NCBI GenBank assembly: GCA_963721455.1
Contig: CAVRJG010000039.1
Span: 192,001-256,000 of the forward strand
Direction: 5' to 3'
DNA length: 64,000 nucleotides
Source of the DNA: an uncultured Methanosarcinaceae archaeon
GTDB taxonomy: Archaea; Halobacteriota; Methanosarcinia; Methanosarcinales; Methanosarcinaceae
Shown here: piece by piece, positions 7,351 to 25,710 of the stretch
How positions within the stretch are numbered: the first letter of the stretch is position 1
Layout: every line of letters begins with the position of its first letter
Made by a program: the position numbers and the translations under genes
The notes under the pieces: generated by a model
The model's input: only the letters and a program-made list of their open reading frames with translations
Database searches by the model: none
What the model was told of the DNA's origin: nothing

Positions 7351-10347
7351 ATGGAAGTAAAGATGAGAAAATCTGGCATTGATATTATTGGGGACATTCC
7401 CTGGGGAACACATTTCTGCCAGTTCTACCAGACAAAAGAAGATTTGATGGACATACTTGTCCCTTATTTCAAAGCAGGGCTGGAAAATAATGAATTTTGC
7501 ATCTGGATCACGGCACAACCTCTGGAAGTAGAGGAGGCAAAAGAAGCCCTGAAAAGGGCTGTTCCTGATTTTGATGTTTATCTGGAGAACAGACAAATAG
7601 AAATTGTTCCCTACACCCACGGGTACATAAATGAGAGTGTTTTCGATTCTAAGAAAATCTTGAACGGCTGGGTTGAGAAAACCAGTTATGCCTTGGCCAG
7701 TGGCTACGATGGTTTGAGATTAAGTTTGAACACTTTCGGGCTGGAAAAAACAGATTGTGATTATTTTGCTGATTACGAGGGAGAAGTGGATAGCATCATC
7801 AGCAAACACAATATGATAGCACTGTGCACCTATTCCCTTGATAAGTGCAGCGCAATTGGGATTATTGACACAGTCTCCAGCCATCAATTCGTTTTGGCCA
7901 AAAAAGAAGGAAAATGGGAGCGAATAGAAAACGTTGGGAAGAAAACGGCGGAAGAGGCAACTATTCGAGCCGCAGAAGAAGACGAAATTAAGTTGGGAGA
8001 AGCATATGACAATCCAGAAAAATTATTTAGAAGAATAATGCAGCTTGAGAAGGCTTATATTTTATTGAAAGAAAGCGAAAAAGGTCTTGCTGAAGCTCAA
8101 AAAATGGCTCATATTGGAAGTTGGGATTTAGATATTGCAACTGATGAATCAAAATGGTCTGATGAAATGCATCGTATTTTTGGGCTTGATCCCCACGAAT
8201 TCGGCCCAAGTGACAAAACATTTTTAAGGTATGTACATCCAGACGATCGAGAATATGTGAATAATGCCATCCAAGACGCCTTAAAAGGAAAGCCATATAG
8301 CATTGATTATCGGATTATTTTAGTTAATGGGGAAGAAAGCGCAGTACATGAACAGAGAGAAATTACTTTTGATAAAAAAGATATACCTGTTCGAATTATT
8401 GGAACAATTCAGGATATTGCTGGGCGTAAAAAGATTGAAAAAGCGTTAAAAATAGCCAGAGATTATAATCGCAGTTTGATTGATTCCAGCCTGGATCTTC
8501 TGTTTGTTACCGATCCTGATGGTAAGATAACTGATGTAAATAAAGCTGCGGTAGAGGCTATCGGCTATTTACGGGAAGAACTCATTGGGACAAACTTTAC
8601 TAACTATTTTACAGATCCTGAACAAGCCAGAGAAGACTATCAAGAGGTATTTAGGGAAGGGGCAGTGCTGAATCGGGAGCTTGAAATCAAGCATAAGGAT
8701 GGCCACATAACTCCTGTTTTGTATAATTTTTCAGTTCGTATGAATGAAAGTGGTGAAATCATCGGCGTCTTTGCAGCTGCACATGACATCACAGAGCGCA
8801 AGAAAGCAGACGAAATACTTAAAAAAACACACGACTGGTTAGAAGAAAAAGTTAAAGAACGTACAGCTGAACTTGAAGAAGCTTATAAGGCATTAGTGGA
8901 AAATGAAATAAGACTCAAAGAAGCTCAAAAAATGGCTCATATTGGAAATTGGGATTGGGATATTGCAACTGATAAAGCATACTGGTCTGAAGAAATGTAC
9001 CGTATCTTTGGACGTGATCCTCAAGAATTAGCACCACCCTACAATGAATATTCAAGTTACATACATCCCGATGATCGAGACTACTTTGATAATGCCGCTA
9101 AGAAAGCTGTAAATGGGGAGTCCTATAGTAGTGATTATAGGATTGTCTTGGCTAATGGGAAAGAACGCACAGTCCACGTAAAATCTGAAGTTATTTTTGA
9201 TGCTGAGAATATTCCTATTCGAATGAAAGGAACAGTTCAGGATATTACTGAGCGCAAGCGGATGGAGGATTCGTTGCGTCAGAGTAAAGCGCTGCTTTCC
9301 GCTGTCCTCGAGCAACTACCAGTAGGCCTTGGACTTGCCGATACTCAAGGACGCTGGTTGGTCACCAACAACATGCTCCGTCGCTTTGTAAGTGGAGGAG
9401 TTATTCCGTCGAGCGACCCTGAAAACAGCTGGCGTTGGAGGACATGGGGAGTTGACGACCGTTTACTAGAGCAACCCGAATGGCCGAACGCGAGGGCACT
9501 TCAGGGCGAGAACATAACTCAAGGGCTAGATTTTCTCTACACCTCCGACGAAGGGCGGGAGATATGGACGCGCATAAGCTCGGTTCCTTTCCGCAACGAG
9601 GCTGGGGAGATCACGGGCACTATCAGCGTCATCCAGGATATCGACGAGAAAAAGAGGACCGAAGAAGCCCTGGAAAAAATAGAAAAAACCCGCATAAAGG
9701 AAATTCACCATAGAATCAAAAACAACCTGCAGGTAATCTCTTCACTTCTCAGCCTCCAAGCGGAGAAGTTCAGTGATACAAAAATCCTTGAAGCCCTTAG
9801 AGAGAGCCAGACCCGTGTGGCTTCAATGGCTCTGATTCATGAAGAGCTATATGAAGGAGATAAGATTGATACCTTCGACTTTGCAGCTTATATCCATAAA
9901 CTCACTTCACATCTTTTCAGTTCATATAATGTTAAAAATGATAATATCAGCTTGAAGCTGGATATTGGACAGGTCTATCTGAGTATGGATCCTGCAATAC
10001 CTCTTGGAATTATTGTAAACGAACTGGTCTCAAATGCCTTGAAGCATGCTTTCCCTGCTGGAAGCGAAGGCGAAATCTACATAAGCCTTAGCAAAGCTGA
10101 AACTCCTGCTCCCAAGCATGATATTTCCGATTCGGGCCCGTGCTATATGGAAAAAAATAGCTTCAATTATGTACTTACAGTAGCGGATAACGGAAAAGGC
10201 ATCCCGGAAGAAATAGAGTTTCAAAATGCGGATTCTCTCGGACTCCAGCTTGTAAACATTCTTGTTGAACAGATAGATGGCTGTATAGAACTTAAAAGAG
10301 ATAAAGGAACAGAATTCACTATCTGGTTTAGCAATATAGATAAATGA
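7351..10347 (+). CDS. Sensor histidine kinase: MEDS + 4 PAS/PAC + HisKA_2 + HATPase
   Basis: WGTHFCQFY (MEDS); repeated PAS_3 modules; EIHHRIKNNLQ H-box; NELVSNALKH, DNGKG, SLGL. Confidence 0.95.
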   Translation: MEVKMRKSGIDIIGDIPWGTHFCQFYQTKEDLMDILVPYFKAGLENNEFCIWITAQPLEVEEAKEALKRAVPDFDVYLENRQIEIVPYTHGYINESVFDSKKILNGWVEKTSYALASGYDGLRLSLNTFGLEKTDCDYFADYEGEVDSIISKHNMIALCTYSLDKCSAIGIIDTVSSHQFVLAKKEGKWERIENVGKKTAEEATIRAAEEDEIKLGEAYDNPEKLFRRIMQLEKAYILLKESEKGLAEAQKMAHIGSWDLDIATDESKWSDEMHRIFGLDPHEFGPSDKTFLRYVHPDDREYVNNAIQDALKGKPYSIDYRIILVNGEESAVHEQREITFDKKDIPVRIIGTIQDIAGRKKIEKALKIARDYNRSLIDSSLDLLFVTDPDGKITDVNKAAVEAIGYLREELIGTNFTNYFTDPEQAREDYQEVFREGAVLNRELEIKHKDGHITPVLYNFSVRMNESGEIIGVFAAAHDITERKKADEILKKTHDWLEEKVKERTAELEEAYKALVENEIRLKEAQKMAHIGNWDWDIATDKAYWSEEMYRIFGRDPQELAPPYNEYSSYIHPDDRDYFDNAAKKAVNGESYSSDYRIVLANGKERTVHVKSEVIFDAENIPIRMKGTVQDITERKRMEDSLRQSKALLSAVLEQLPVGLGLADTQGRWLVTNNMLRRFVSGGVIPSSDPENSWRWRTWGVDDRLLEQPEWPNARALQGENITQGLDFLYTSDEGREIWTRISSVPFRNEAGEITGTISVIQDIDEKKRTEEALEKIEKTRIKEIHHRIKNNLQVISSLLSLQAEKFSDTKILEALRESQTRVASMALIHEELYEGDKIDTFDFAAYIHKLTSHLFSSYNVKNDNISLKLDIGQVYLSMDPAIPLGIIVNELVSNALKHAFPAGSEGEIYISLSKAETPAPKHDISDSGPCYMEKNSFNYVLTVADNGKGIPEEIEFQNADSLGLQLVNILVEQIDGCIELKRDKGTEFTIWFSNIDK

Positions 10348-10533
10348 ACCACGATTCATATTTAAAAATATTCACAATAGCAGAGTGCATTCACGTAATT
10401 GCATTCCGCCTCTTGTTTTTCACGCTGTGTACTTTTTGATGTTCTGTACGCGGGTAAGCTTAGATAACAGCGTCAAAAAAGTAAAGTACTTCTTATTTTT
10501 GGCCGGAGAATACGGTACTTGCCAGCGTATATA

Positions 10534-10565
10534 TATTACTGCGGCAATGTTACAGTACTGCAATA
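10534..10565. promoter_or_regulatory. Two tandem imperfect palindromes between a TATA box and the RBS; putative autoregulatory operator
   Basis: TATTACTGCGGCAATG and TGTTACAGTACTGCAATA directly after TATATATA and before the HTH gene. Confidence 0.5.
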
Positions 10566-10581
10566 TTTCAGAGGGATTGGA

Positions 10582-10941
10582 ATGATAGATTTTGCCTGTA
10601 AAGAGTTCAAAATTGAAGACGTGATCAAGTGTGCCCTTAATCTCACAAAGGCAGACCTCAAGGTAATGAAATATTTTTTAAATGAAACCGAGCAGTGGGT
10701 TGACACTGATTTTCTTTCAAAAGTCCTGAAACTGGATATCTCCACAATCCAGCGCTCCGTTAAAAAACTGTATGAAAAAGAAATTCTGCAGAGGTCGCAG
10801 CAGAACCTTGACGGAGGAGGTTATGTCTTCAGATACAAAATTCATTCAAGAGCTAAAATAAAAAATATTATAATGACTGTAGTAAATTCCTGGGCCGACC
10901 GACTAGGACAGGAACTTGAAAAATGGGAAAACGGAGCTTAA
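10582..10941 (+). CDS. Winged-helix transcriptional regulator (TrmB/ArsR/MarR-like)
   Basis: LKLDISTIQRSVKKLYEKEIL HTH, wing GGYVFRY; N-terminal cysteines (FACKEF..VIKC). Confidence 0.85.
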   Translation: MIDFACKEFKIEDVIKCALNLTKADLKVMKYFLNETEQWVDTDFLSKVLKLDISTIQRSVKKLYEKEILQRSQQNLDGGGYVFRYKIHSRAKIKNIIMTVVNSWADRLGQELEKWENGA

Positions 10942-17164: not shown

Positions 17165-17554
17165 TCATCTGGCTTCGTAGCAGGAAATTTCCCTGGCGTC
17201 TACCCTCACCGGTTTCCCGAGTTCGTTTGAAACAACATTTTTTACCCTTGCCATGCACCGGCATTCAAGCTGGATACGGGCTGACATGGCTTCTCGCTCT
17301 TCAACATAGAGATCGTTTGAACTGAGAATGGAGTGAACCGAGACCTGCTTCTGTACAACCCTTGCTATGAGACCCTGAGTCCCATCCGTAAGGTCCTGAA
17401 GGCTTGTAGAGGTCAGGAGGACGTTCTCTCCTGCACTGAGCCCGAGTACCCCTACAAAATTTTGGGGACTCCGAATCTCAAGAGTCCTGAGATTATGTTT
17501 CTTCAGGATCTCGATCAGAGAATCAGCAATTCCTGTTAGCGCGATGTACTCCAT
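17165..17554 (-). CDS. DUF473-like archaeal protein
   Basis: ALTGI..LRTLEIRSPQNF..SARIQL pattern; 4 nt downstream of the PAC2 gene. Confidence 0.75.
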   Translation of the reverse strand: MEYIALTGIADSLIEILKKHNLRTLEIRSPQNFVGVLGLSAGENVLLTSTSLQDLTDGTQGLIARVVQKQVSVHSILSSNDLYVEEREAMSARIQLECRCMARVKNVVSNELGKPVRVDAREISCYEAR

Positions 17555-17558
17555 GGGA

Positions 17559-18305
17559 TCACCCGTACATTGGGAACTCCTTCTTTACTTCTCCTTTCTG
17601 CTCGGTAGTCTGAACATCCTCAGCAAGCCTCTGGAGCTCGAATTCTATGCGTTCAGCCTGCTCTTTAAGCCGGTCTGTATTTATTGAAAGCCCATAGAGC
17701 TCGTTTAAAACCCCAATAACAGCAGAAGCAGCCCTTGGGTCAGGATTCTGAGTTCGGGTAGCACCAAGCAGGCTAAATGCAGGAATCTCACGCAGCAGAC
17801 ATTCAGCCATTACGCTGCCCGAAATTCCGGAGATAGTTCCCATCTGGAAAACCTCTACCTTATCCTTGATTTTATCCAGCATCTCAGACGTGGTGGCTGC
17901 CCCGAAGACTTTGTGCCCCCCATCCATAATGGCAATCCCTGCAATGGAAGCGATCTCTTTTACATTAATAGACTCGGCCCAGTCCACCAGAGCATTGCTG
18001 ACATCGTAAGAGATAGTGTGGCTGATAGGAATATCGGAGATAACAATAATCAGGTTGTGCTCCACGTCTTCGTAGATCCTCACAGGCATGTTTATGAGCC
18101 CCTCATAAAGCACTGCAATAGAGGGAAAATACCTGGATTCGATAGAGCCGATATATTCCATTTTCAATTCTTCGATCATATGCTGACTTGCAATATTCCC
18201 CACAAGCCCGATTCCTGGAAAACCTTCAATCAAAACAGGGTTTTTTGACTTTACAGGTTTGGTAATAATCTTCACATCATTGTTGTCATAATCTGTAGTT
18301 GACAA
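17559..18305 (-). CDS. Proteasome assembly chaperone (PAC2/PbaA-B) family protein
   Basis: EGFPGIGLVGNIA, PDPRAA, C-terminal HbYX motif MYG; TTG start after GAGGTGG. Confidence 0.9.
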   Translation of the reverse strand: MSTTDYDNNDVKIITKPVKSKNPVLIEGFPGIGLVGNIASQHMIEELKMEYIGSIESRYFPSIAVLYEGLINMPVRIYEDVEHNLIIVISDIPISHTISYDVSNALVDWAESINVKEIASIAGIAIMDGGHKVFGAATTSEMLDKIKDKVEVFQMGTISGISGSVMAECLLREIPAFSLLGATRTQNPDPRAASAVIGVLNELYGLSINTDRLKEQAERIEFELQRLAEDVQTTEQKGEVKKEFPMYG

Positions 18306-19566: not shown

Positions 19567-21039
19567 ATGTCAGCAATATTCGAAATTCTCGACAAGGACG
19601 CAGGCGGCAGGATAGGCAGACTCAGGACTCCCCACGGGATTGTTGAGACACCTACCGTCATGCCTGTAATAAATCCGAATATCCAGCTTATCTCCCCGAA
19701 AGAAATGCGAAGTTTCGGGGCAGAGATTCTGATTACCAATTCTTATATTATCTACCGCAAGGAAGAGCTGAGAAGTGTCGCCCTTGAGAAAGGGCTGCAT
19801 GGGCTCCTGGGATTTGACGGGCCCATTATGACGGACTCGGGTTCTTTCCAGCTTTCCGTCTATGGGTCCGTGGAAGTTACGAATGAGGAAATCCTGGGGT
19901 TCCAGCAAAAGATAGGAAGCGACATTATTGTCCCGCTGGACATCCCGACGCCCCCTGATGTTCACTACAGGAGGGCTGAAGAGGAACTTGCAGTTACGGC
20001 CGAACGCCTGGAAGCTGCCCGCAGGTTTGTCCAGGGAGAGCAGCTCCTTGCAGGACCTGTCCAGGGCTCAACCTACCCCGAACTGAGGGAAAAAGCTGCT
20101 TCCCACCTGAAAGACCTCAATTTTGAAGTGTATCCCCTGGGAGCAGTTGTCCCGCTTATGGAGGCCTACCGTTACGCCGAACTTGTTGACGTGATTGCCG
20201 CATCCAAAAGGGGGCTTTCTCCAGCTTCGCCTGTCCACCTTTTCGGGGCAGGGCATCCCATGATGTTCGCCCTTGCAGTAGCCCTGGGCTGCGACCTTTT
20301 TGATTCGGCAGCCTATGCCCTTTACGCCAAGGACGGGCGCTATATTACTGTAACCGGGACCTACCATGTGGAAAAACTAAATTATCTACCCTGTTCCTGC
20401 CCGATCTGTTCGAGATATACTGCAGACGAATTGAAGAAAGCGGACAACATGGAAGAACTTCTGGGAAGGCACAACCTCTACGCTACTTTTGCTGAAATCC
20501 GGCTGATAAAACAGTGCATAAAGGACGGAAAACTGCTCGAACTTGTGGAGCAGCGCTGCCGTGCTCACCCGAAGCTTCTTGACGGGCTGAAAAGATTCTA
20601 TACCCACTCCCCCTGGCTTGAGCAGCTTGACCCGGCTACAAAAGGCACTTATTTCTACTGCGGGCCAGAATCAGCTTCCCGCCCCGAAGTCCTTCGGTTT
20701 GGAAAAAGGCTGGAAAGGTTCAGCCTGGAAGGCTCGGTGCTTATTCGCACAGGCCCGGTAAAAGGAGAGGGAAGCTACGACCAGATTCTCACTTTCAAAG
20801 CGCCTTTCGGGGCATTTCCTGTCGAAATGGAAGAAGTATATCCTTTCAATGCCGAAGTCTCGAAATTTCCGGATTACGAAGCCCTCAGCACAGCTTTCTC
20901 AAACACTCTTAAGCTGATGGAGCTGAACCCACAAGCAGAATTTACTTTTGTCTGCGAAAAAGAGTTCAAGCATCCGCTAATTGAAGAGATAAGTAAAAGA
21001 GCAAAACTGGTATACAGGGAAGACTGGAAAAAAGAATGA
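19567..21039 (+). CDS. tgtA: Archaeosine tRNA-guanine(15) transglycosylase (no PUA domain)
   Basis: TPTVMPVINP, MTDSGSFQ, HLFGAGHP, DLFDSAAY, Zn site CSCPIC...H. Confidence 0.95.
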   Translation: MSAIFEILDKDAGGRIGRLRTPHGIVETPTVMPVINPNIQLISPKEMRSFGAEILITNSYIIYRKEELRSVALEKGLHGLLGFDGPIMTDSGSFQLSVYGSVEVTNEEILGFQQKIGSDIIVPLDIPTPPDVHYRRAEEELAVTAERLEAARRFVQGEQLLAGPVQGSTYPELREKAASHLKDLNFEVYPLGAVVPLMEAYRYAELVDVIAASKRGLSPASPVHLFGAGHPMMFALAVALGCDLFDSAAYALYAKDGRYITVTGTYHVEKLNYLPCSCPICSRYTADELKKADNMEELLGRHNLYATFAEIRLIKQCIKDGKLLELVEQRCRAHPKLLDGLKRFYTHSPWLEQLDPATKGTYFYCGPESASRPEVLRFGKRLERFSLEGSVLIRTGPVKGEGSYDQILTFKAPFGAFPVEMEEVYPFNAEVSKFPDYEALSTAFSNTLKLMELNPQAEFTFVCEKEFKHPLIEEISKRAKLVYREDWKKE

Positions 21040-21249
21040 GCTTTGAGGAGCTGATTAACGGCGCTGAACATTTTATAAGTCCTTCAGGCTTTCTCATAAA
21101 CAAACCCCTGCTTCAGAAAAGATAAAAAGAAAACTTTTTTGAGGTGCAAACCTTTATAGGACTACCTGTAAAGAACCCTCTAAATCGGGAAAGAGCCGAA
21201 ATACAAAATTCCTGATACAAAAACTCCCGTACAAACCGGAAAAGTATAG

Positions 21250-22200
21250 GTGAAACTGTTGTCCCTTACAGCAAGAATCGGGGAAATCAGCCCTTATCTG
21301 CGGCTGCTGCGACCCGAACTCTACTACATGGACCTTACCCTCCCTGCCTCGAGTGCAATCCTGGCTTCCTACCTGGCTACCGGAGGGCTTCCTCAATATT
21401 TTCCCTTCCTAATCGCCTTAATAGGCGGCTTTGCAGCCATTACCAGTTCATATGTTTTTAATGACTGCTGTGATATCGATATTGATACGATTAACCTGCC
21501 TGGCCGTCCCCTGCCCTCTTCCAGAGTTTCAAAGAGTTCGGCGCTTACTTATGCTCTCATCTTATTAGTGATCGCAGGCTCAGCAGCCGCTTACCTGAAC
21601 CCTGAATCTCTCCTGATCCTTGTTATTGCGGCTGGAACTATCACTATTTACTCAATCTTTGCAAAAAGGAATACTTTCCTTAGCTTTTTGCCAGTGGGTA
21701 TCTCCTACGGGCTTGTGCCTGTGGGCATCTGGCTCGCCTTTGACCCGGCAGGGCTCCTGAAAGGCAGCGACGGGGTAATTCTCCCCCTACCAGCTATCTG
21801 TTTCGGGCTCATGATGTGCGTTACGGATTGGGCCTTTACCCTTGGAGGAGTTGCCAGAGACGTTGAAGGGGACAGACTGAAGGGTGCCCCTACAATGCCC
21901 GTGACCTTTGGAATTCCCTTTACTGCCAGATTCGTGACTTTCTGGTGGATTGTCGGAGTTATTGCTTCAGTAATCATAGGCTGGTCAGCCCGGCTCGGGC
22001 CTGTGTACTTTGCAGGAGCACTTGCCTCAGGCCTCTGGATGCTTGCCCAGTGTTTTGATTTTATCAGGCACCCTACCCCGGAGAGGGGCGGCGCGCTCTT
22101 CCTTAACGGCTCAAACTACAGAGCAATTATGTTCGGATCAATGATCCTTGATGTGGTGCTGTGCATTTATGCAGGGGCTTACACCTCTATTCTCTGGTGA
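21250..22200 (+). CDS. UbiA-family membrane prenyltransferase
   Basis: NDCCDIDID..N.PGRPLPS and RDVEGD..GAPTMP Asp-rich motifs; multiple TM helices; GTG start. Confidence 0.9.
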   Translation: MKLLSLTARIGEISPYLRLLRPELYYMDLTLPASSAILASYLATGGLPQYFPFLIALIGGFAAITSSYVFNDCCDIDIDTINLPGRPLPSSRVSKSSALTYALILLVIAGSAAAYLNPESLLILVIAAGTITIYSIFAKRNTFLSFLPVGISYGLVPVGIWLAFDPAGLLKGSDGVILPLPAICFGLMMCVTDWAFTLGGVARDVEGDRLKGAPTMPVTFGIPFTARFVTFWWIVGVIASVIIGWSARLGPVYFAGALASGLWMLAQCFDFIRHPTPERGGALFLNGSNYRAIMFGSMILDVVLCIYAGAYTSILW

Positions 22201-22214
22201 AAAGGTAGAGAAAA

Positions 22215-23372
22215 ATGGACGCGGATATTATTGTAATAGGGGCATCTCCTGCAGGGCTGATGGCTGCCAGGAACGCCTGTGAAAAAGGATCTTCAGTCCT
22301 TTTGCTGGAAAAAAAAGGAGAAATAGGGCATCCCCCACATCCTGCAAATTCTTTTTTTAAGGGAATGTTAGATAAATGCGGAGAGAAGGCAGACCCTTCT
22401 TATGTGGTGCATTATCTCAAAGGTATGCAGATTATTTCCCCATCCGGGCGGACAGTGGAAGTTGAGACGCCCGGATACGCTATTGACAAGACAGAATTCG
22501 ACCGGTTTTATGCGAAGAAAATAATGAAAACCGGCGTAGACCTCCGAAAAGGAGTAGAGGTACACAATATTCACAGGGAAGGAGAGAAATTTACGGTCAG
22601 CACCTCGGCAGGGGTGTTCACGTCAAGACTCGTCATCATTTCCGACGGTATAAACTCAAAAATGGCTTCCCTCCTGGGCCTGAAAACAATGAAACACCCG
22701 GAAGATATTGCCTGGGGAATTGAACTGGAAGTCAGGGCTCCTGACCTTGGAAAACCGGAAATGTTTGAATATTACGTAGGAAACCATGCCCCTGGCTGGA
22801 AGACTACATACTCTCCGAGAGGAGGCGACAATGCCGCAATCGGAGCCTATGTGCGCAGATGCGGAAAGGACGCAACGCCTTACCTTAATGCCTGGGTTGA
22901 AAATTTCAAAAAGCTTAAAGGGCTCAAAGAGCTTGAAGTTGTAAGAAAACTTTCAGGCGGAGACCCTATAGTGACACTTCCGAATGAATACATAACCGAT
23001 GGAATAATGGTCGCTGGTGGGGCAGCCGGTCAGTCCGGGATAGGATATGCGATGAGGGCAGGCCAAATATGCGGAGATGTGGCTGCAGATGCCGTAAGAA
23101 AGGGAGATGTTTCAAAAAATGCCCTGTCAGAGTACCGAAAAACCTGGGAAAAGGAGTTTAAGGCAGAGCACTACCTGGGCCGAATAGGTCTTGAGACCCT
23201 CAGGAAAATGACGGACAGGGAAATTGATGAGATGGTAAGGGTCTTTGAAAAGGAGGACCTCTCATTCATTCATGGAAGTTCAGTTGAGCAGGCGATGCAG
23301 GTCTTTGCATTCATGCTAAAGAAAAAACCCTCTGCAATCTTAAAGTACAGAGCACTCTTCAGGAACAGGTGA
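22215..23372 (+). CDS. Geranylgeranyl-reductase-like FAD-dependent oxidoreductase (divergent)
   Basis: VIGASPAGL dinucleotide fold, FDR, ISDGINS, AGGAAGQ..GIGYAM. Confidence 0.88.
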   Translation: MDADIIVIGASPAGLMAARNACEKGSSVLLLEKKGEIGHPPHPANSFFKGMLDKCGEKADPSYVVHYLKGMQIISPSGRTVEVETPGYAIDKTEFDRFYAKKIMKTGVDLRKGVEVHNIHREGEKFTVSTSAGVFTSRLVIISDGINSKMASLLGLKTMKHPEDIAWGIELEVRAPDLGKPEMFEYYVGNHAPGWKTTYSPRGGDNAAIGAYVRRCGKDATPYLNAWVENFKKLKGLKELEVVRKLSGGDPIVTLPNEYITDGIMVAGGAAGQSGIGYAMRAGQICGDVAADAVRKGDVSKNALSEYRKTWEKEFKAEHYLGRIGLETLRKMTDREIDEMVRVFEKEDLSFIHGSSVEQAMQVFAFMLKKKPSAILKYRALFRNR

Positions 23373-23450
23373 ACCTGGCATTTAAAAACAAGCAAAAAAG
23401 AGCAGAACTGACACAAACATCAGCATCAAATATCAGGTGCAGGAAAAAAT

Positions 23451-24590
23451 ATGCAGTACGATTTTTATAAAAGCCCACTTCTCAGAGTTTATACGGAAAT
23501 CGAAGACGGACACATGAGGGTGAAAACCAGCGGGGCTGCGTCCATCCTTATGAAAAAAAATCTTGAGAAAAACCTCTCGATTTTTGAAGGCGAAAAGCCT
23601 GCAAAAGTGGAGGCAGACAGGCTCATCTGTTCAACCTGGATGCCCCCGGTCCCAAGCCCGGGTTTTGACCGCCTGGTAAAAAGCCAGCTTTTTTCCATTC
23701 TGGGAAAAAAGATTCCAGACCAGGTCACTATCTCCATTACTGAAGAATGCCCGAACAACTGCATACACTGTGCCCTTCCTGACACAAAAAGCCGGGCGAA
23801 ACTTACACCGGAAACAGTAAAATCCACAATCGACCAGGTGCTCGAAATGGGCACAACCTTCGTGATCTTTGACGGGGGTGAGCCACTGACCTATCCGGGT
23901 TTAGAAGACCTGATCCGGTATGTGGATGCTGAAAAAGCCATTACAGGCATGTTTACCTCAGGAGTTGGGCTGACTGAAGAGCGAGCCAACCTCCTTAAAG
24001 AAGCAGGCCTTTATTCTCTCACCGTCAGCTTTGACAGCGCGCACGAAGATAAACACGATTACGTAAGGGGCAGAAAAGGAGTGTTTAAAAGTGCGGTTGA
24101 AGCAGTTAAAAACGGACTTAAGGCAGGGCTGCTTGTAAATATATATGTGGTGCTTTCCAGGGACAATGTAAACGAGCTTGAAGGACTGTATGCTCTTGCA
24201 TCAGAGCTTGGAGTCCACGAACTTTCTTTCTATGAAATAGTTCCTACTGGCAGGTGGATGGACCATGCTTCAGAAATAATGACCCCGAAAGATCTGAGAA
24301 AATTCGACAATTTTGTGTCCAGGGCCAGGGAGAAAGAAGGCCCCAGAGTGTTTCCTATCCCGCAGGTTATGAAGACCACAGGCTGTATGGCAGGCAGAAA
24401 GTGGCTGCATATTACCCCGGAAGGAAATATTCTTCCCTGTGCCTGTATCCCGATCCCTTATGGGAATGTCCATAGAGACAGCATAAAGGATGTCTGGAAA
24501 AAGATCAGGGAAGATCCTGCATATAATGCAAAGTGCTGCCTTATGAGAAACCCCGAGTTCAGAGAGAAGTATCTGAAGCTTTCAGAGTAA
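23451..24590 (+). CDS. Radical SAM protein with SPASM/twitch domain
   Basis: CPNNCIHC, DGGEP, CMAGRKWLHITPEGNILPC...CCLMR. Confidence 0.92.
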   Translation: MQYDFYKSPLLRVYTEIEDGHMRVKTSGAASILMKKNLEKNLSIFEGEKPAKVEADRLICSTWMPPVPSPGFDRLVKSQLFSILGKKIPDQVTISITEECPNNCIHCALPDTKSRAKLTPETVKSTIDQVLEMGTTFVIFDGGEPLTYPGLEDLIRYVDAEKAITGMFTSGVGLTEERANLLKEAGLYSLTVSFDSAHEDKHDYVRGRKGVFKSAVEAVKNGLKAGLLVNIYVVLSRDNVNELEGLYALASELGVHELSFYEIVPTGRWMDHASEIMTPKDLRKFDNFVSRAREKEGPRVFPIPQVMKTTGCMAGRKWLHITPEGNILPCACIPIPYGNVHRDSIKDVWKKIREDPAYNAKCCLMRNPEFREKYLKLSE

Positions 24591-24787
24591 ATTCGGGATA
24601 AAAGTGTTTAATCCTGCCCCTTTATACCGTTTTCAGAATGGAAAGCTGAAGCTAGTAAAGTTAAATTGCCAGGAATAAAAGCAGTCAATGGAAATGAGAG
24701 TAGAATAATAAATAGCGTGTACCATAAATAGCGTGTACCGAATCTGTCAAATACAAGTACAAGGTCCGCCAGAAGAGAAAATGGGAT

Positions 24788-24830
24788 GCAGGTAAAAATA
24801 TACCTGCAACAAATTGATTTTTTTCGGCGA
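24788..24830. terminator. Hairpin between convergent genes
   Basis: TGCAGGTA-AAAATA-TACCTGCA with a downstream T-tract. Confidence 0.5.
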
Positions 24831-24852
24831 TGTAAATTTTTTGTGAGATGAA

Positions 24853-25710
24853 TTAGACTAAACCCGACCTCTGAAGAGTCATCAAGTCTTCGGTGGTGAG
24901 TTTTGCTCCGCCCTTGAACTTATCGAAGATGGACTTGGCATCCTTCTGGAGTTCGGACTTGACAACACGGGACTTCCCATCTTTGTCTTTCTTCTTGAGT
25001 TTGAAGATTTCTTTATCAAGATCCCGAATTTCCTTCTGGGCGTTGATGAAAATCTTGTGCTGTTCGTCAGCTGCTTCCTGGGCTTTTACAAAGTCCCTGT
25101 GGGCAATGTCAGATTCTGCCCTGGTTCTGTCAGCCTCTTTGAAAGCGGTAATCATCTTCTCATGGTATTCCTGAGCCTGCCTGGCATATTCTGCCAGCTC
25201 ATTGTGGAATTCTGAGGCTTCATCCCTGATCTGCTGAGCTTCGTCCAGGATGTCTTTCAGTTCGAGGTTGCTTTCGAGCTGGACTTTTTTGACCTGGTAC
25301 TGCTTTTGAAGCACAGTAATCTTGCTAACAAGTTCCCTTTCCTTGCTTGTGCTCAGGACTTCGGTTTGCTGGGCAAATTCAAGACGGTCGATATCTTTTC
25401 TCAGGGCCTTGATAGAAGGGCCACCCAGGTTGTTCTGCTTCCTGATCGAATCTGCTTTTGCAAACAGTTCATTTGCCCTGGAATTGGTATCATCGCGCTT
25501 GTTCTTGTATTCGCTGACCTTCTCATTAATTTCGTCCCTGAGAACTTTTAATTCCTGGGCTTCGTTGATAAGGTCTTTTGTCTTCTTGTTCAGTTCATTA
25601 CGCTTTGCAGCGAGAGCGCTGGCTTCTGCATTTAAAGCGTTCCTTTTATCCTTGGATTCTTCAGAAATGTCCTTCAGATCTGATCTTTTTTTCTGCAATT
25701 CTTTTAGCAT
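24853..25710 (-). CDS. Conserved archaeal coiled-coil protein
   Basis: Long heptad K/E-rich sequence; LEFAQQTEVL..ERELV and terminal GAKLTTEDL motifs. Confidence 0.8.
   Translation of the reverse strand: MLKELQKKRSDLKDISEESKDKRNALNAEASALAAKRNELNKKTKDLINEAQELKVLRDEINEKVSEYKNKRDDTNSRANELFAKADSIRKQNNLGGPSIKALRKDIDRLEFAQQTEVLSTSKERELVSKITVLQKQYQVKKVQLESNLELKDILDEAQQIRDEASEFHNELAEYARQAQEYHEKMITAFKEADRTRAESDIAHRDFVKAQEAADEQHKIFINAQKEIRDLDKEIFKLKKKDKDGKSRVVKSELQKDAKSIFDKFKGGAKLTTEDLMTLQRSGLV

Follow-up and report, generated by a model that had tools for sequence, protein, structure and literature searches.

Does a three-gene locus of an uncultured Methanosarcinaceae archaeon encode late steps in the synthesis of methanophenazine? 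The locus occupies positions 21250-24590 of a 64,000-nucleotide stretch of DNA, here called the window (contig CAVRJG010000039.1 of assembly GCA_963721455.1, positions 192,001 to 256,000), and consists of genes for a UbiA-family prenyltransferase, a flavoprotein with the fold of the geranylgeranyl reductases (GGRs) and a radical S-adenosylmethionine (SAM) enzyme. Methanophenazine is the membrane electron carrier of the Methanosarcinales, the source of much of the biogenic methane formed from acetate and methyl compounds, and the first isoprene unit of its chain is saturated. The marine ANME-2 and ANME-3 archaea, which oxidise methane, are expected to use it as well. A first-pass annotation, made from the sequence of the window, had proposed that the three genes make this carrier or another prenylated product. 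We found that the gene set is conserved, stands apart from the lipid enzymes of the same genome, is distributed among lineages in a way that fits the carrier and is connected, via a paralog of its radical SAM gene, with the C25 (geranylfarnesyl) diphosphate synthase. On balance, it probably encodes late steps to methanophenazine or to the equivalent prenyl-ether carrier of the lineage concerned, for which we infer the catalytic roles, the acceptor and the sequence of reactions.

Methanophenazine, whose C25 chain is attached through an ether link, is present in every member of the Methanosarcinaceae that has been analysed (available part of PMC3017947). According to the available parts of PMC3017947 and PMC8546582, which cite Ogawa 2010, the C25 synthase is the only gene experimentally tied to the carrier. 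Apart from this synthase, the pathway was described as unidentified or not deciphered in 2018 (PMC6315138) and again in 2021 (available part of PMC8546582). No paper in the literature searched, which covered few subscription journals and no supplements so that an earlier assignment is possible, assigns the three genes described here. The triad is a strong and directly testable candidate for the methanophenazine pathway, and together with its radical SAM paralogs it makes a short candidate list for a long-open pathway in a genetically tractable genus.

Three conserved genes apart from the lipid enzymes

The three genes lie on the + strand with gaps of 14 and 78 nt, and the open reading frame (ORF) coordinates agree with the co-oriented arrangement given in the first-pass annotation. 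The order UbiA, GGR-like, radical SAM was kept in other Methanosarcinaceae genera at 54-70% identity (loci L086-L088), which indicates that the arrangement is not due to chance. All three genes were contiguous in the Methanosarcinaceae and in one member of the Methanoperedenaceae, and they were contiguous in a different order in f33, a family of uncultured Halobacteriota from one habitat type.

The UbiA gene (21250-22200, GTG start) encodes 316 aa and belongs to the superfamily by its match to PF01040 (137.8 bits, gathering cut-off 34.2). N71, D72, D75, D77 and D79 as well as R203, D204, G207 and D208 were invariant among 11 aligned orthologs, so that both Asp-rich motifs, in the forms NDxxDxxxD and DxxxD, are kept, as had been noticed before. 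UbiA reached no NCBIfam equivalog. The best match was PRK12884 (106 bits, cut-off 269), and the protein stayed below the equivalogs for digeranylgeranylglyceryl phosphate (DGGGP) synthase (NF009521 and NF009522, 85.7 vs 296 and 66.1 vs 353), 4-hydroxybenzoate polyprenyltransferase (TIGR01474, 51.9 vs 275.45) and heme O synthase (TIGR01473, 79.8 vs 210.3). Its names in public records are generic, some of them 'protoheme IX farnesyltransferase', and stem from automatic annotation; a search of the protein atlas with UbiA returned generic UbiA clusters only. The nearest solved relatives were DGGGP synthase (6M31, E 6e-13) and then chlorophyll synthase, both of which move a prenyl chain onto an oxygen atom. 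DGGGP synthase 6M31 is of the same membrane fold family, has both Asp-rich motifs and joins its prenyl chain to a hydroxyl acceptor as an ether, the reaction that we propose for UbiA as well. In contrast to DGGGP synthase, UbiA is restricted in its distribution rather than universal in archaea, and its acceptor is presumably aromatic rather than glycerol phosphate. The genome encodes a DGGGP synthase elsewhere (407.4 bits, cut-off 296), to which UbiA is only ~26-27% identical. Because this separate gene passes the DGGGP synthase equivalog, the case that UbiA acts as an ordinary DGGGP synthase, named in the first-pass annotation as an outcome that would speak against its proposal, is removed. 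UbiA thus appears from its sequence to form a distinct ortholog group, and we propose it as the O-prenyltransferase for a hydroxyphenazine head group or its precursor.

The flavoprotein gene (22215-23372) encodes 385 aa, of which residues 4-359 align to the Thermoplasma GGR 3OZ2 (E 2.9e-30). Its structural model (pLDDT 91.3) has the GGR fold, with TM-scores of 0.88 to 3OZ2 and 0.86 to the Sulfolobus enzyme 3ATQ. The protein nevertheless stayed under the cut-off of the GGR family TIGR02032 (112.9 vs 158.8 bits) and scored 76 bits against the BchP/ChlP model, whereas two canonical GGR paralogs encoded elsewhere in the genome exceeded the same cut-off (238 and 218 bits) and kept the classical motifs. 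In the alignment with 3OZ2, RCGEG is replaced by HPANS (Cys to Pro), YIWVFP by KTTYSP and GDAA by GGAA, the last followed by a 6-residue deletion, and the dinucleotide motif reads GxSxxG where GGRs have GxGxxG. We take the three stretches of 3OZ2 to be the hallmark motifs of GGRs and the Cys to be the catalytic one. The fold is therefore common to the flavoprotein and to 3OZ2 and 3ATQ, whereas the Cys, YxWxFP, GDAA and GxGxxG motifs are found in the archaeal GGRs only. The motifs GASPAG, PANTFF, GWKxTxSP and GGAAGQS were common to all 10 orthologs aligned, which came from five families. Thus, the alignments agree with the earlier description of a GGR-like fold without the CG, YxWxFP and GDAA motifs. 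Since 10 of 10 orthologs share the replacements and both canonical paralogs in this genome have the classical motifs, the derived active site is conserved rather than decayed. Orthologs of the flavoprotein were recognised at E 1e-64 to 1e-249, and paralogs lay at ~1e-33. In one genome of the same genus (G006, 99% complete) the GGR-like gene at C7:478832-479987 was split and contained in-frame stops (one TGA, one TAG), reflecting either a pseudogene or an assembly error.

The radical SAM gene (23451-24590) encodes 379 aa. The protein matched PF04055 with 84.4 bits (cut-off 29.5), with a nearly invariant CxxxCxxC motif at C100, C104 and C107, and the SPASM family PF13186 with 31.3 bits (cut-off 21.5). 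C312, C330 and C363 were nearly invariant and C332 was conserved in the operon type, which gives the C-terminal domain, called SPASM/twitch in the first-pass annotation, three to four conserved auxiliary Cys. A full SPASM motif has more, and the residues present would suit a single twitch-like cluster better than a pair of SPASM clusters. A family-specific N-terminal domain, modelled as three strands and a helix, carries an invariant STWxPPxPSxxFxR motif. The model (pLDDT 92.7) resembled SkfB, CteB and SuiB most, at TM ~0.6 and an rmsd of 9-13 Å, and the scores against the nearest equivalogs were far under the cut-offs (NirJ2 125.4 vs 500, AhbD 123.7 vs 500, PqqE 120.2 vs 381). The protein thus shares with SPASM/twitch enzymes (AhbD, NirJ, PqqE, SkfB, MoaA) a CxxxCxxC core and a C-terminal Cys-bearing auxiliary domain, but differs from them in reaching no equivalog, in its own N-terminal motif and in occurring as three paralogs per genome, the operon copy and two close paralogs, one of them beside the C25 synthase. 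The third paralog (G000:C33:62854-63891; L092:7732-8958, + strand) has lost CxxxCxxC and all conserved auxiliary Cys, and its ANME-2 ortholog (L183:6882-8063) has both; Methanosarcina seems to have kept it as a 'pseudo-SAM' protein.

Phyletic distribution and the link to the C25 synthase

UbiA was counted at E<=1e-30 in 284 genomes of the order; true orthologs matched with E<1e-88, and the next-best matches lay at ~1e-15 within the order and at 2.6e-32 for a second UbiA in f33. Orthologs were present in 172 of 176 Methanosarcinaceae (f1) and in 18 of 20 and 25 of 27 genomes of two ANME-2 families (f2 and f3), and all eight genomes of these families in which UbiA was missed are 56-83% complete. 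They were found in only 1 of 53 genomes of f4, which is labelled Methanoperedenaceae via its one positive member and whose large genus g4 had none in 49 genomes, and in neither f5 (0/1) nor f6 (0/6). A draw of the class added f7, which we take to be the Methanotrichaceae (72/74), and f8, the Methermicoccaceae (3/3). In a draw of 301 genomes of the phylum, each at least 85% complete, the 59 positive genomes all belonged to f1, f2, f7, f11 (3/4) and f33 (2/2). Among the Halobacteriota families sampled in this draw, no UbiA ortholog was found outside the Methanosarcinia except in f33 and in f11, a family of uncultured genomes labelled Methanocellales. The class profile of the GGR-like gene was nearly the same (f1 67/67, f2 2/2, f7 69/74, f8 3/3, g4 0/4). 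By title, the ortholog records came from Methanosarcina, Methanococcoides, Methanolobus, Methanohalophilus, Methanomethylovorans, Methanosalsum and Methanimicrococcus, from ANME-3, from ANME-2 (Methanocomedens, Methanogaster, HR1) and from Methermicoccus and a related lineage.

The three genes occur together. All UbiA-positive genomes checked for their partners (G288, G295, G303, G373, G393, G285, G287, G020, G025, G125, G019, G552) contained both the GGR-like gene and the radical SAM family, the latter with 2-4 members per genome in spot checks. In UbiA-negative genomes from g4, f5, f6, f10, f16 and f24 the spot checks gave generic or paralog-level matches only, both for the GGR-like gene (G021, G026, G077, G023, G022) and for the radical SAM gene (G021, G026, G023, G022, G450, G415, G368, G378, G389). 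Orthologs with 64% and 49% identity were also seen at L206 and L254, on contigs binned as Anaerolineales and Cloacimonadota; these contigs are most likely archaeal and misbinned.

This distribution can be compared with that of the electron carriers. The available part of PMC9012536 names ANME-2a/b/c and ANME-3 as expected methanophenazine users and ANME-1 and Methanoperedens as carrying the futalosine pathway of menaquinone synthesis. In the available part of PMC5244752, methanophenazine was lacking in a Methanoperedens enrichment, and menaquinone use is held for Methanoperedens. Of 21 genomes of the Methanoperedenaceae genus g4, which has no set, 19 contained PF02621, the marker of the futalosine pathway, whereas it was found in none of four genomes of f11, a family that carries the set. 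Since the ANME-2/3 lineages and the Methanosarcinaceae carry the set and g4 with its futalosine marker does not, the set lies on the methanophenazine side of this divide. All four f11 genomes have a complex-I NuoH/FpoH homolog, and a lineage with this homolog and no futalosine marker needs some other lipid-soluble carrier. The phylogenetic profile, which had been proposed as a check, came out as the methanophenazine reading predicts, with the set present in lineages that use, or are expected to use, the carrier and absent from relatives with menaquinone or no membrane carrier; the carrier status of f11 and f33 stands outside this count. Neither of the adverse patterns considered beforehand was seen, as UbiA and the GGR-like gene were present in the expected producer families, and in the Halobacteriota families sampled UbiA did not occur outside the Methanosarcinia except in two small uncultured families. 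In the 301-genome draw, UbiA occurred with HdrE in 54 genomes and without it in 5, HdrE alone occurred in 7, and 235 genomes had neither.

The second line of evidence is the link to chain synthesis. The closest paralog of the radical SAM protein (41-42% identity, E 8.6e-103) is encoded directly downstream of a polyprenyl synthase gene by the A-type ATPase operon, and this synthase scored 609 bits against the geranylfarnesyl diphosphate synthase equivalog of NCBIfam, above the cut-off of 600. The synthase and the paralog were adjacent at 8 places in 7 genomes (G000, G288, G295, G303, G373, G393 with two, and G125), which span Methanosarcina, three Methanotrichaceae, two f11 genomes and the positive member of the Methanoperedenaceae; the adjacency was lacking in the ANME-2 genome G019 and in Methermicoccus (G285). 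The link to the C25 synthase therefore runs via the paralog and not via the radical SAM gene of the operon.

Two other candidates for tracking the carrier were rejected. The C25 synthase family failed as an independent profile, as its homologs are distributed more broadly than the gene set. The only other UbiA paralog detected, of the PRK13591 family, was present in 34 of 43 Methanosarcinaceae and in none of nine Methanotrichaceae and so does not track the carrier; it is absent in two Methanosarcinaceae genera and present in the one g4 genome sampled.

In f33 a cluster (G552, L080:6847-12308; also L186) contains, in this order, UbiA, radical SAM and GGR-like genes, a gene for a ThiC-family radical SAM protein (PF01964, 568 bits) and the second UbiA. 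A ThiC-family enzyme among prenylation genes suggests that the head group in this family may be another heterocycle.

The proposed late steps and their alternatives

In the pathway that we favour, UbiA would ionise an allylic polyprenyl diphosphate and transfer the chain to the hydroxyl of 2-hydroxyphenazine or of a precursor, which creates the ether; Methanosarcina would use geranylfarnesyl diphosphate as the donor, supplied by the synthase encoded elsewhere in the genome. UbiA enzymes require an allylic diphosphate, and hence the chain would be attached unsaturated and reduced afterwards. The GGR-fold flavoprotein, as the proposed reductase, would then saturate the first isoprene unit of the chain now bound as an ether; during the transfer, the double bond of this unit would still have to be allylic. 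Ether formation by UbiA followed by action of the GGR-fold protein on the allyl aryl ether would account for both the ether link and the saturated first unit. The radical SAM enzyme and its two paralogs would act on the head group or on a prenylated intermediate. A head-group role is conceivable by likeness to other anaerobic cofactor pathways: paralogous radical SAM enzymes serve one lipid-soluble or deazaflavin carrier in the case of MqnC/MqnE (futalosine) and CofG/CofH (F420), although this likeness is functional and not one of sequence. The pairing of the first two enzymes has parallels in ChlG/BchG with ChlP/BchP and in MenA with MenJ of mycobacterial menaquinone synthesis, where an unsaturated chain is first joined by a UbiA enzyme to the head group of a pigment or redox carrier and selected units are then saturated by a flavoprotein of the GGR family. 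In contrast to these systems, the GGR hallmark motifs are lost here, the linkage would be an ether and a radical SAM gene belongs to the unit.

A bolder version, which we put forward only tentatively and regard as doubtful, holds that UbiA, the GGR-fold protein, the three radical SAM paralogs and the C25 synthase suffice to make methanophenazine by a complete route that needs no oxygen and in which the bacterial Phz enzymes are not involved. The radical SAM paralogs would build or close the ring, and in the GGR-fold protein a new active site would have evolved to accept an aryl allyl ether. Around triad members in the Methanotrichaceae, ANME-2, f11 and f33 we found no convincing candidates for ring-forming genes; apart from housekeeping genes there were only the ThiC-family gene of f33, an isomerase-like gene of the cupin type and a small fusion of flavoprotein and ferredoxin. 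The fusion (PF02441 + Fer4) recurs close to the GGR-like and radical SAM genes of f11 and, in ANME-2, close to one of the radical SAM paralogs (L170:2730-3278, L171:11440-11994, L182:3442-4167), and the fusion of the genome studied here (C41:116944-117648) lies ~10 kb from hdrED.

Several results weigh against the assignment to late methanophenazine synthesis. With the Cys, YxWxFP and GD motifs lost and GxSxxG in place of GxGxxG, the reductase activity of the flavoprotein, and even its binding of FAD, appear uncertain, and 'selective reduction' by a protein that lacks the GGR catalytic motifs is not secure. The 'ring coupling' role once suggested for the radical SAM enzyme is purely conjectural. 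More generally, the catalytic roles of the three genes are read from sequences and models. The backbone of the radical SAM tree did not resolve, three ancient orthogroups are accordingly not proven, and we call the operon copies orthologous on the basis of synteny and best hits. Adjacency of the triad is not universal, as the genes are only paired in the ANME-2 family f2, f8 and f11 (UbiA with radical SAM in f8, GGR-like with radical SAM in f11) and dispersed in the Methanotrichaceae. One Methanotrichaceae genome (G324, 99% complete) has UbiA and no GGR-like match at E<=1e-55. No HdrE homolog was detected by protein or profile search in the set-carrying families f11 (0/4) and f33 (0/2). The C25 synthase was not found in ANME-2 genome G019, which is 100% complete and has the set, the best match being 121 bits; therefore the chain may vary in length among lineages, or the connection with the synthase may be less tight than it seems. 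Conversely, homologs of the synthase (E<=1e-60) occur in families without the set (52/52 in f10, 8/10 in f16, 2/2 in f24). The genomes counted are kin and not independent, so that the pattern comes down to a small number of gain or loss events. Finally, measurements of methanophenazine cover few taxa, and for ANME-2, the Methanotrichaceae and the Methermicoccaceae the carrier is expected rather than measured, which means that the profile was compared in part with a predicted trait. The methanophenazine proposal of the first-pass annotation has thus gained the phyletic profile, the separate lipid enzymes and the paralog link to the C25 synthase, and has lost ground in that the operon exists only in some lineages, two lineages with the set have no HdrE and the GGR motifs are gone.

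It is possible, if rather unlikely, that the set tailors another isoprenoid specific to the Methanosarcinia, such as an unusual ether lipid or polyprenyl derivative, with UbiA acting on a non-phenazine acceptor and the flavoprotein modifying the chain. The DGGGP synthase-like families nearest to UbiA, the GGR fold of the flavoprotein and the set without HdrE in f11 and f33 would all suit such a product, and the loss of the reductase motifs fits a non-reductive modification of the chain. However, the housekeeping lipid enzymes are encoded separately, and the paralog link leads to the C25 synthase; methanophenazine is the only use known in Methanosarcina for the product of this enzyme. Hydroxyarchaeol is unlikely as the product because Methanoperedens makes it too (available part of PMC6581649) yet lacks the set. 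Within the order, the set and the futalosine marker stand on opposite sides (g4 with the marker, UbiA 0/49), which points to a respiratory carrier.

An isoprenoid tail could instead be placed on a tetrapyrrole of heme or F430 type, in parallel to chlorophyll synthase with ChlP or to heme O synthase, with the radical SAM enzyme in a role like that of AhbD or NirJ. This is improbable. NirJ2, AhbD and AhbC are indeed the best-named relatives of the radical SAM enzyme, UbiA has chlorophyll synthase as its next solved relative after DGGGP synthase, the GGR family includes BchP/ChlP, and the label 'protoheme IX farnesyltransferase' is attached to some orthologs. All these matches, however, are far under their cut-offs (79.8 vs 210 for heme O synthase, 123.7 vs 500 for AhbD), and the distribution of the set does not follow that of the cytochrome: Methanoperedens-type genomes have HdrE but not the set, and f11 has the set but no HdrE-type cytochrome b. 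To our knowledge, no prenylated tetrapyrrole has been reported from Methanosarcina.

The resemblance of the radical SAM enzyme to SkfB, CteB, SuiB and PqqE in fold or sequence, and of its N-terminal strands and helix, in our reading of the model, to a peptide-recognition element, would suit a maturase of the type acting on ribosomally synthesised and post-translationally modified peptides (RiPPs), in an operon that lipid-modifies a peptide or protein. This is very improbable, as the fold match reaches TM ~0.6 with the large rmsd given above, two radical SAM paralogs lie beside isoprenoid genes, and no further + strand ORF of at least 80 aa was found in 21040-24850, a search that did not cover shorter ORFs. 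That the locus holds ordinary duplicates of DGGGP synthase and GGR with a radical SAM neighbour by chance agrees with the superfamily memberships and can practically be dismissed, since the curated cut-offs were missed and the true copies lie elsewhere, the derived active-site motifs are conserved, the set is restricted where lipid enzymes are universal, and the three genes co-occur, variably linked, across distant lineages.

If the assignment to methanophenazine synthesis holds, the genes would give a genomic marker that separates methanophenazine from menaquinone users among uncultured archaea. Applied here, the marker flags two uncultured lineages outside the Methanosarcinia, f11 and f33, as possible methanophenazine users. 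At present the carrier type of uncultured archaea is told from Fpo/Fqo trees and the absence of menaquinone genes (available part of PMC9012536), and methanogens of the Thermoproteota have been predicted to make methanophenazine (PMC9478090).

Surroundings of the locus

Upstream of the triad, a gene of the tRNA-guanine transglycosylase family, assigned by ORF and domain annotation, ends at 21039, and the gap of 210 nt that follows (21040..21249) presumably holds the promoter of the three-gene unit on the + strand. A scan for promoters and terminators gave the same counts as shuffled sequences; the consensus used is bacterial and not applicable to an archaeon. In metatranscriptomes, small shares of the locus were found in two runs, and the short contigs of one run (at least 99% identity) cover pieces of all three genes; such contigs cannot show transcription, its level or a common transcript. 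Downstream, the convergent neighbour is a DUF7121 gene on the minus strand (24853-25710).

The wider neighbourhood contains genes for a thermosome, PAC2, DUF473, a HAD phosphatase and the F420-dependent methylene-tetrahydromethanopterin (H4MPT) dehydrogenase. The DUF473 and PAC2 genes (17165-18305, minus strand) lie ~3 kb upstream of the triad, and in the Methermicoccaceae (L081, L090) they stand directly beside the UbiA-radical SAM pair. This proximity looks like old synteny that is interrupted in the window by two inserted genes. Near the third radical SAM paralog on L092, a class I tRNA synthetase of the Trp/Tyr type is present as two overlapping ORFs (9265-10167 and 10142-10753) that cover profile positions 4-174 and 165-292, as the result of a frameshift, a sequencing error or a split of the gene. 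Farther along the window, the segment 50001-58000 has a G+C fraction of 0.29-0.35, compared with ~0.43-0.50 in the rest of the window, and may be an island or a foreign segment.

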